A stretch of DNA of 64,000 bases from Escherichia coli (GTDB lineage Bacteria; Pseudomonadota; Gammaproteobacteria; Enterobacterales; Enterobacteriaceae), in assembly GCF_003019035.1 (NCBI RefSeq), contig NZ_CP027447.1, one strand, 5' to 3'. Below, one piece after another: positions 40,370 through 41,099 of this stretch; the stretch's first letter is position 1, and each line of letters starts with the position of its first letter. The position numbers were made by a program.

Positions 40370-41099
40370 CATGCCTGCAATCTGGGAAACCGGGGTAGAA
40401 AAAAACTTGCAGGCCATAACAGTATCTACGAGGATCGTGCAATATATTTATTTTGCAAGATTGTGTAGGCCGGATAAGGCGTTTACGCCGCATCTGGCAT
40501 GAACAGTGTGCATTTTGGCAATAAATATGAAACCAACTGTCATGTCGGTTTTTTTAAAGGCCGAAGGTGGTAAACCTTCGGCCTTAGCTACGTTTCCTCA
40601 GTTATTCAATAAACTGACGGATCAGTTCCAGCAGCGCGATTAGCGCCTTAAGAACGATGAGAACTTTATCGAGAAAAGTTTTCATCCGTTGCTCCCTTAA
40701 GGGAGAAAGACAATCACAGCTTACCCTTACGTTGCCTGTAACTATGATTTTCTTCATGTGCTAGATGAGGACTGCCTCTCTCCAAATTAGAGCACCAGAA
40801 TCAGCACCACCTGTATCCTGACCAGGACTTAAAAGTACTTTTCCGCACTGCGGTAATCCCTTGAGGCAGTATCACTACTAGCGTCGGGATTGTATCGCCA
40901 ACATAGCTGTTTGAATATGTAGGCATCCTGACTTATAATTCACTTGCTAGATGAGGACTGTTTCATTTCTGCCCGGAACCACCAAGTCTTGGGCGGAAAA
41001 AATAAAAAAACCGACTGTCATGTCGGTTTTTTTATATCTGTATTCTGGTGCAACCATTTTGTTCTCACGACAATCGCCGTTTCAGAATACCGCCTATTA

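Follow-up and report, generated by a model that had tools for sequence, protein, structure and literature searches.

The window, the 64,000-nucleotide stretch of Escherichia coli DNA analyzed here, carries a 570-bp toxin-antitoxin module between ybbP and mnmH. Its limits were set by aligning three natural alleles, in which the module appears as an indel relative to an empty ybbP-mnmH spacer. The module comprises a small toxin gene and a divergent antisense sRNA gene, with the following features.

40514..41083, no strand given: whole module, from the three-allele alignment
40530..40556, plus strand: degenerate second copy (27 nt, 96% identity with 41008-41034) of the sRNA terminator, at the module's left edge
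40559..40583, minus strand: toxin terminator hairpin, GGCCGAAGG / CCUUCGGCC, from the sequence and aligned with dinQ and dql terminators
40602..40685, minus strand: 27-aa DinQ-family toxin ORF with ATG start and TAA stop, MKTFLDKVLIVLKALIALLELIRQFIE, from NCBIfam NF041472 and PGAP
40692..40705, minus strand: Shine-Dalgarno (SD) hairpin, elements 3:4, with anti-SD CUCCC at 40701-40705, loop UUAA, and SD GGGAG at 40692-40696, from the sequence, -7.0 kcal/mol
40760..40783, minus strand: sRNA target, element 2, predicted mRNA nt 100-123, from duplex predictions and covariation
40863..40882, minus strand: predicted 5' end of the toxin mRNA, element 1 ("lock"), +1 at G 40882, from homology
40889..40894, minus strand: predicted toxin promoter, -10 TACAAT with a weak -35 TATTCA 17 bp upstream, from family alignment
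40911..40939, plus strand: sRNA promoter TTGAAT-17-TATAAT, 10/12 consensus in a promoter scan and aligned with the agrA and agrB promoters
40946..41035, plus strand: AgrB-family antisense sRNA, ~90 nt, from Rfam RF02891, its fold, and identity to K-12 agrA/agrB

The 27-codon minus-strand ORF proposed in the initial annotation is present and encodes MKTFLDKVLIVLKALIALLELIRQFIE, which by peptide alignment is a single hydrophobic helix with the core AL[IV]A[IL]LELIR of a 27-31-aa family. The similarity to DinQ proposed there is real: K-12 DinQ is MIDKAIIVLGALIALLELIRFLLQLLN, and the window peptide scores 40.9 bits against the NCBIfam DinQ HMM NF041472 (profile positions 1-22 of 22; cutoff 30 bits). 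It falls below the cutoff of the DqlB HMM NF041473 (24.5 bits versus 35), and the 7-aa insertion of DqlB (RAVVAVAN) is missing from it in the peptide alignment. RefSeq/PGAP already labels the ORF, adjoining mnmH, as "dinQ: damage-inducible type I toxin DinQ" (WP_349808740.1), so the description of the locus as unannotated fails for the toxin, which is placed at exactly this site, and stands for the sRNA, over which RefSeq has no feature.

A 51-aa ORF extending to 40757 contains the toxin ORF as its C-terminal portion. This longer ORF is unlikely to be the true product because no SD lies near its ATG and because K-12 does not translate its homologous long ORF in that form (PMC3567139). Searching with the extended ORF of 51 aa, we recovered relatives that bear the precomputed Pfam assignment PF28061:DinQ. 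They define a peptide subgroup, ...K[VT][LI]IVLKAL[IV]ALLELIRQFI[ED], found in Salmonella, Yersiniaceae, Enterobacter, and Klebsiella on chromosomes, on ICE-like elements, and in an F-like transfer region. Relative to DinQ proper, the subgroup is longer by 3 aa at the N-terminus and ends in an RQFI tail like that of DqlB, whose 7-aa insertion it lacks. A literature search with the window peptide sequence returned no match.

The initial annotation had also predicted a plus-strand RNA of roughly 85 nt. Positions 40947-41035 match the Rfam AgrB family RF02891 over its full length (53.6 bits, E = 1.7e-07, model positions 1-84 of 84; gathering score 40 bits), and this is the sole AgrB match across the 64-kb window. 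The predicted RNA consists of a 5' pairing arm, an internal stem-loop (40968-40997), and an intrinsic terminator formed by a hairpin and a T-run (41002-41035); a match to Rfam OrzO-P on the terminator region is sub-threshold (25 bits versus 60). Identity of the gene with K-12 agrB and agrA, counting the promoters, is 76-80%. The tataat box recorded earlier at 40934-40939 is confirmed, with TTGAAT 17 bp upstream, and is part of the only promoter-like match in 40400-41150. On the minus strand, the scan of the same interval returned none, the toxin promoter (8/12 positions) lying under threshold.

We place the toxin +1 by homology at the G at 40882, 7 nt after the -10, by aligning K-12 dinQ and eight relatives, the K-12 +1 itself being deduced from the G88-A119 target numbering of Kristiansen 2016 (PMC5066626). 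The -10 column is conserved in the family as TATCAT/TATAAT/TATGAT/TATAGT. The SD, GGGAG, lies 6 nt before the ATG and is half of the palindrome ctccc-ttaa-gggag (40692-40705), so that its burial in a palindrome, as first described, is upheld. Relative to the family, the stem change from CUCCA/UGGAG to CUCCC/GGGAG is compensatory. Downstream of the ORF, the terminator hairpin is followed by only 3 U, as it is in K-12 dinQ. From this terminator through the 5' UTR, the toxin transcript is ~77% identical to K-12 dinQ, in keeping with the dinQ/agrB-like arrangement at a different chromosomal site that had been suggested.

The 5' end of the sRNA repeats part of the toxin 5' UTR. A 17-nt repeat of 40758-40774 had been reported; 16 nt are exact (40945-40960 = 40759-40774), and the 17th base is t versus g. 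When the module was shuffled 300 times, exact direct repeats reached 15 nt at most, and the longest per shuffle was mostly 8-9. The pairing between sRNA and toxin mRNA that was postulated from this repeat holds, and extends beyond 17 nt to ~24 nt counting G-U pairs. In the predicted duplex, the 5' end of the sRNA anneals to positions 40760-40783 of the toxin 5' UTR through 19 contiguous bp, ~24 in total, in the order 15 Watson-Crick pairs, 2 G-U, 2 Watson-Crick, a mismatch, and 4 more pairs, with four G-U overall. The full duplex has an energy of -78.4 kcal/mol, against -45.1 +/- 4.0 for shuffled sequences (z = -8.3).

This complementarity covaries across the family. The relatives comprised 12 loci from Yersiniaceae, Salmonella, Enterobacter, and Klebsiella, 9 of which entered the pairing analysis, and all relatives examined encode, in the same divergent position, an AgrB-family RNA that scores above the Rfam threshold and whose 5' arm is the complement of a site in the 5' UTR that ends in ...CUAAC. 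In a register-fixed alignment of ten family loci, both partners change at 15/24 pairs, and the share of paired cells is 96.7%, versus 41-46% when the alignment is slid. The window-specific change of GUUAG to GCUAG is matched in the sRNA, in the target (CUAGC), and in the predicted mRNA 5' end. Part of this covariation could stem from gene conversion acting on the two DNA repeats and not from selection for pairing of the RNAs.

Cross-pairing predictions point to a private pair. Within the matrix, the cognate combination has the longest helix (19 bp, -42 kcal/mol); the window sRNA forms at most 15 bp on any other toxin mRNA, and any other sRNA at most 10 bp on the window toxin. K-12 AgrB on the window toxin reaches -28 kcal/mol with 7 bp, and the window sRNA on canonical dinQ -34 kcal/mol with 12 bp. 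The window toxin is thus predicted to be insulated from K-12 AgrB.

Alternatively, the locus could be a decaying or silent relic, a dinQ/agrB homologue that no longer works as a pair, with an unexpressed toxin or an ineffective, AgrA-like sRNA, and that is drifting to loss. The window duplex is the shortest of the family set, in which the uninterrupted pairing of relatives runs to 20-30 bp. Of the ~33-bp duplex typical of the family, the window has lost the distal half, and the toxin promoter is weak. Calculated over a 36-nt arm, the cognate energy of -48 kcal/mol resembles the -47 of AgrA:dinQ, a non-functional pair in that dinQ is not repressed by AgrA (PMC3567139). The uninterrupted helix, however, is 19 bp in the window versus 9 bp for AgrA:dinQ, and the ORF, the SD spacing, the SD hairpin, elements 1-4, and the 19-bp duplex are all intact. 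Moreover, the locus-specific changes are compensatory in three places (the triple of mRNA 5' end, target, and sRNA; element 2:3; and the SD stem), which is not expected of a drifting relic. Duplexes of 18-21 nt suffice in IstR-1/tisB, OhsC/shoB, and OrzO/zorO. We regard the relic reading as improbable, and return below to the population data that bear on it.

The 5' UTR is predicted to contain four elements that form mutually exclusive 1:2, 2:3, and 3:4 duplexes. Element 1, GCUAG...ACUGCCUC, is predicted to pair with the target region, and element 2 has two alternative partners, the anti-SD region (40701-40714) and the 5' end of the mRNA; predicted local energies are -24.5 kcal/mol for 1:2 and -22.2 kcal/mol for 2:3. 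We examined the switch by partition-function folding of full-length, 5'-truncated, and sRNA-blocked mRNA, with K-12 dinQ as control. In the full-length mRNA, P(SD:anti-SD) is 0.73 and P(anti-SD:target) is 0.00; 5' truncation shifts these to 0.10-0.20 and 0.62-0.71, respectively, and blocking the target of the truncated mRNA as if sRNA-bound gives 0.93 and 0.00. The K-12 control changes in the same direction. P(SD free) in the truncated mRNA reaches only ~0.17. Folding thus predicts the states of the published dinQ model, with an SD hairpin that is closed, opens on trimming, and closes again with the sRNA.

We propose the following mechanism, in which we infer the transcription start, processing, toxicity, and role of RNase III from homology. 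The weak sigma-70 promoter (-10 TACAAT) would drive a minus-strand mRNA of ~330 nt. In the full-length transcript, the 5' end would pair with internal nt ~100-123, leaving the SD in the CUCCC/GGGAG hairpin and the mRNA translationally inert. Trimming of the 5' end would release this internal segment, which could then capture the anti-SD and open the SD, and the 27-aa hydrophobic peptide would be made and enter the inner membrane, where by analogy it would be toxic at high level. The divergent ~90-nt sRNA, from its strong promoter, would use its first ~24 nt to pair with this segment and return the SD hairpin to its closed state; the resulting duplex is probably an RNase III substrate, and toxin synthesis would stay off.

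Canonical dinQ has a LexA operator in its promoter. The initial annotation saw no canonical LexA box, and our scan agrees: none was found in the locus, where the best site (40905-40924) has a heterology index (HI) of 14.3 and a mismatch in the near-invariant CAG. HI values here are approximate, the matrix having been rebuilt from LexA operator sequences; it returns 4.5-4.9 for the K-12 dinQ operator, published as 4.83 (PMC3567139). At the position homologous to the K-12 LexA box there is nothing, and eight subgroup relatives have no LexA-like site better than HI 13.3. Transcription of the window toxin is therefore probably not under LexA control, unlike that of canonical dinQ, and the product name "damage-inducible" is probably wrong for the mnmH-side copy.

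Taken at its word, that product name would describe an SOS-regulated, LexA-repressed DinQ like the canonical gene. Apart from the name itself, such regulation could draw on the weak LexA-like CTGTTTGAATATGTAG at 40907-40922, which lies between the two promoters and ranks ~6th of 63,980 window positions. By the same matrix, however, the best site in the locus scores 14.3 against 4.5 for the K-12 operator, the homologous position holds nothing, no relative has a site better than HI 13.3, and the PGAP name derives from an HMM match rather than from evidence of regulation. We consider SOS control of this copy very unlikely. The broader idea that the mnmH-side copy is an SOS-independent, AgrB-insulated DinQ paralogue with a different trigger, and that its sRNA might have a second function such as another mRNA target, seems to us doubtful as a whole. 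If it were true, a membrane-toxin circuit now mislabelled by PGAP as "damage-inducible" would vary among strains of E. coli.

The module occupies a variable site. In the empty allele, ...gaacagCgtgcaC runs straight into agaatcccc..., and the ybbP-mnmH spacer without the module holds only two REP elements. Between K-12 and the window, homology is confined to the sequence outside 39107 and 41093, and K-12 has the rhsD island at the same site instead. An IS621 copy at 39148-40425, inserted at the CT core of a REP sequence, occurs at the ybbP-mnmH site in 7 genomes only and is unrelated to the toxin-antitoxin module. We rejected a reading of 40443-40557 as the relic of a second agr-like gene split by a REP element because 40443-40513 is also present in the empty allele and is thus ancestral spacer; the part of this interval that belongs to the module is only the ~27-nt terminator copy at 40530-40556. 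That copy has one stem mismatch, is terminator-like on both strands, and may prevent transcripts from ybbP from reading into the antisense strand of the toxin. The locus in the window is on the chromosome and lacks mobility genes, so that nothing obvious suggests a function in addiction. We found no support for recent acquisition from a plasmid or phage: plasmid relatives are mostly 60-80% identical, three matches are near-identical and include at least one Mb-sized record that bears a plasmid label, and no relatives of the module were found in phage sequences.

Among 5,426 complete E. coli genomes, ~1,325 (about a quarter) carry the mnmH-side locus. Canonical gor-side dinQ is present in 5,422 of the same 5,426, so the mnmH-side locus is an extra paralogue. 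An intact toxin part occurs in 1,135 genomes and an intact sRNA part in 1,314; in ~190 of the ~1,325 carriers (~14%), the toxin part is disrupted and the sRNA kept. In one recurrent allele, 108 bp are deleted between GATGAG·ACT microrepeats; the start of the toxin is lost along with the SD and the sRNA target, and the sRNA remains. These toxin-deleted, sRNA-retaining alleles fit tolerated loss of a toxin whose antitoxin cannot go first. Such disrupted alleles, peptide variants with read-through tails or small duplications, and the lack of the locus in ~76% of genomes are also what a relic drifting to loss might leave; against this, the 1,135 intact toxin parts are 99-100% identical.

The excess of intact sRNA parts over intact toxin parts, and the persistence of sRNA-only alleles, would also be explained if the sRNA mainly served elsewhere, either by neutralizing Dql toxins of incoming plasmids and ICEs (anti-addiction) or by acting on unrelated mRNAs. 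Family members are common on conjugative plasmids and ICEs. Yet predicted pairing of the window sRNA with canonical dinQ, ICE-borne, or plasmid dqlB leaders amounts to -24 to -37 kcal/mol and at most 15 bp, against -42 kcal/mol for its own target, and the safe order of decay of a toxin-antitoxin pair accounts for sRNA-only alleles equally well. With cross-pairing this weak, anti-addiction activity against plasmid or ICE Dql toxins finds no support, and a main role of the sRNA elsewhere appears highly improbable.

Our preferred reading, which we consider likely, is that the locus is a chromosomal accessory member of the DinQ/Dql-AgrB type I toxin-antitoxin family, additional to the gor-arsR dinQ-agrAB locus and working by the switch proposed above. 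The module is genuine and is probably functional as a type I toxin-antitoxin system. About a quarter of E. coli strains carry a second DinQ-family toxin together with a private antitoxin RNA that RefSeq leaves unannotated. The extra copy is a potential confounder for studies of persistence, membrane depolarization, and SOS responses in non-K-12 strains, for which the natural toxin-deleted alleles that keep the sRNA are ready-made controls. Interest is modest, and lies in the missing LexA box, the shortened duplex formed by a single private sRNA, the presence/absence polymorphism, and the toxin-deleted alleles; practical value is likewise modest, and no new kind of biology is opened. The novelty implied by the initial annotation was too high: the toxin is already PGAP-annotated at the locus, the dql family was published in 2016 (PMC5066626), and antisense RNAs of dql genes are predicted in T1TAdb (PMC8594479).

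Known counterparts include tisB/istR-1, shoB/ohsC, and zorO/orzO, in which a divergent sRNA pairs upstream of the RBS via ~18-21 nt (PMC5066626, PMC5397157). They share with the window a small hydrophobic toxin and a long structured 5' UTR needing processing, and differ in having no sequence homology to it. DqlB-AgrB on pOXA-48 and IncX3 plasmids has been validated experimentally, with toxicity, sRNA rescue, compensatory base-pair mutants, and post-segregational killing (PMC12365149, PMC12317039). It resembles the window in family, layout, and the RQFI[D/E] tail, whereas DqlB has 31 aa with the 7-aa insertion, the window peptide has 27 aa without it, and DNA identity is just 60-80%.

Kristiansen 2016 (PMC5066626) describes the dql family, with groups dqlA and dqlB, on Enterobacteriaceae chromosomes and plasmids; it lists 14 dql sequences, some from strains that carry dinQ plus dql genes, and reports conserved 5' UTR elements, sigma-70 promoters, and terminators. 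The description of the dqlA group fits the window locus, whose peptide clusters with ...KVLIVLKAL[IV]ALLELIRQFI[ED] peptides of Salmonella, Yersiniaceae, Enterobacter, and Klebsiella that are neither DinQ proper nor DqlB. The window peptide subgroup is probably DqlA, an assignment made by exclusion only.

A further close counterpart is the K-12 dinQ-agrAB system (Weel-Sneve 2013, PMC3567139; Kristiansen 2016, PMC5066626), whose DinQ is toxic and membrane-depolarizing when overproduced (PMC3567139). K-12 dinQ is near-universal and lies at gor-arsR, whereas the window locus is accessory and lies at ybbP-mnmH. The window peptide has an ATG start and a 3-aa N-terminal extension relative to DinQ and ends in RQFIE rather than RFLLQLLN; the window has one sRNA gene, against agrA and agrB in tandem; its duplex spans ~24 nt (19 contiguous), against 33 of 34 for K-12 dinQ/AgrB; and it lacks the LexA operator that K-12 dinQ possesses. 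Common to both are a 27-aa single-helix peptide with an ALIALLELIR core, an mRNA of ~330 nt (predicted, in the window) whose long 5' UTR contains an SD hairpin and, by prediction in the window, four elements with mutually exclusive pairings, and a divergent AgrB-family sRNA that derives from a 5' UTR repeat and pairs with element 2, all at equal relative spacing and with the same terminator architecture.

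A recurrent natural allele of the module lacks part of the toxin gene. In NZ_AP022222.1 (480-1135 of the extracted locus, L005), 108 bp have been deleted between GATGAG[A/G]ACT microrepeats, corresponding to window positions ~40665-40772. The deletion removes the toxin start codon, its Shine-Dalgarno sequence, and the target of the sRNA, while leaving the sRNA gene itself untouched. Retention of the sRNA part without an intact toxin part was found in about 190 of the ~1,325 carrier genomes.

A peptide from an ENA metagenome contig (P0026, MKTFLDKVLIVLKALIALLELIRFLLQLLN) joins the N-terminal half of the mnmH-side toxin to the C-terminal tail of canonical DinQ, which suggests that the paralogous loci have recombined in some strain or that the contig was misassembled.

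Features at the ybbP side of the module (window coordinates)
39120-39147, REP element, ancestral ybbP-mnmH spacer
39148-40425, IS621 copy (IS110 family), just 3' of ybbP
40468-40504, REP element, ancestral ybbP-mnmH spacer
40530-40556, degenerate copy of the sRNA terminator, marking the module's left edge, 3' of the toxin terminator

The IS621 copy interrupts a REP sequence at its CT core, TTATCAGGCCT^ACGAGG. Just 7 of the 5,426 complete E. coli genomes carry it at this ybbP-side site, so the insertion is recent; it has no relation to the toxin module. The spacer REP elements give sub-threshold matches to Rfam naRNA4, and in the IS-free allele they give an above-threshold match to ES036/CssrF. 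Elsewhere in the window, and unrelated to the module, positions 54057-54123 (+) match the sRNA STnc480 in Rfam at 81.9 bits (gathering score 72).

The terminator copy agrees with the sRNA terminator at 26 of 27 nucleotides, with one mismatch in the stem, and no counterpart was visible in a non-systematic view of the aligned 3' ends of relatives. It may be a leftover of the module's arrival, or may block read-through from ybbP.

In related loci (L007-L017), PGAP and other gene callers begin the ORF at an ATG within the Shine-Dalgarno sequence (ATGGAG), yielding 31-aa models that start MEKRVK. A GTG or ATG lying 7 nt past GGAG aligns with the ATG of the window toxin and is, judged from this alignment, the more plausible start; the 31-aa models are thus probably overlong by 4 aa.

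The -10 hexamer of K-12 dinQ, TATGAT, sits within the LexA box (1981-2000 of the K-12 locus, L002). No full LexA box occurs in the aligned relatives, which retain the -10 and in some cases (L013, L017) a CTGTAT half-site. Since relatives keep the -10 with at most a half-site, the comparison suggests that the LexA operator of dinQ arose atop a -10 region conserved across the family.
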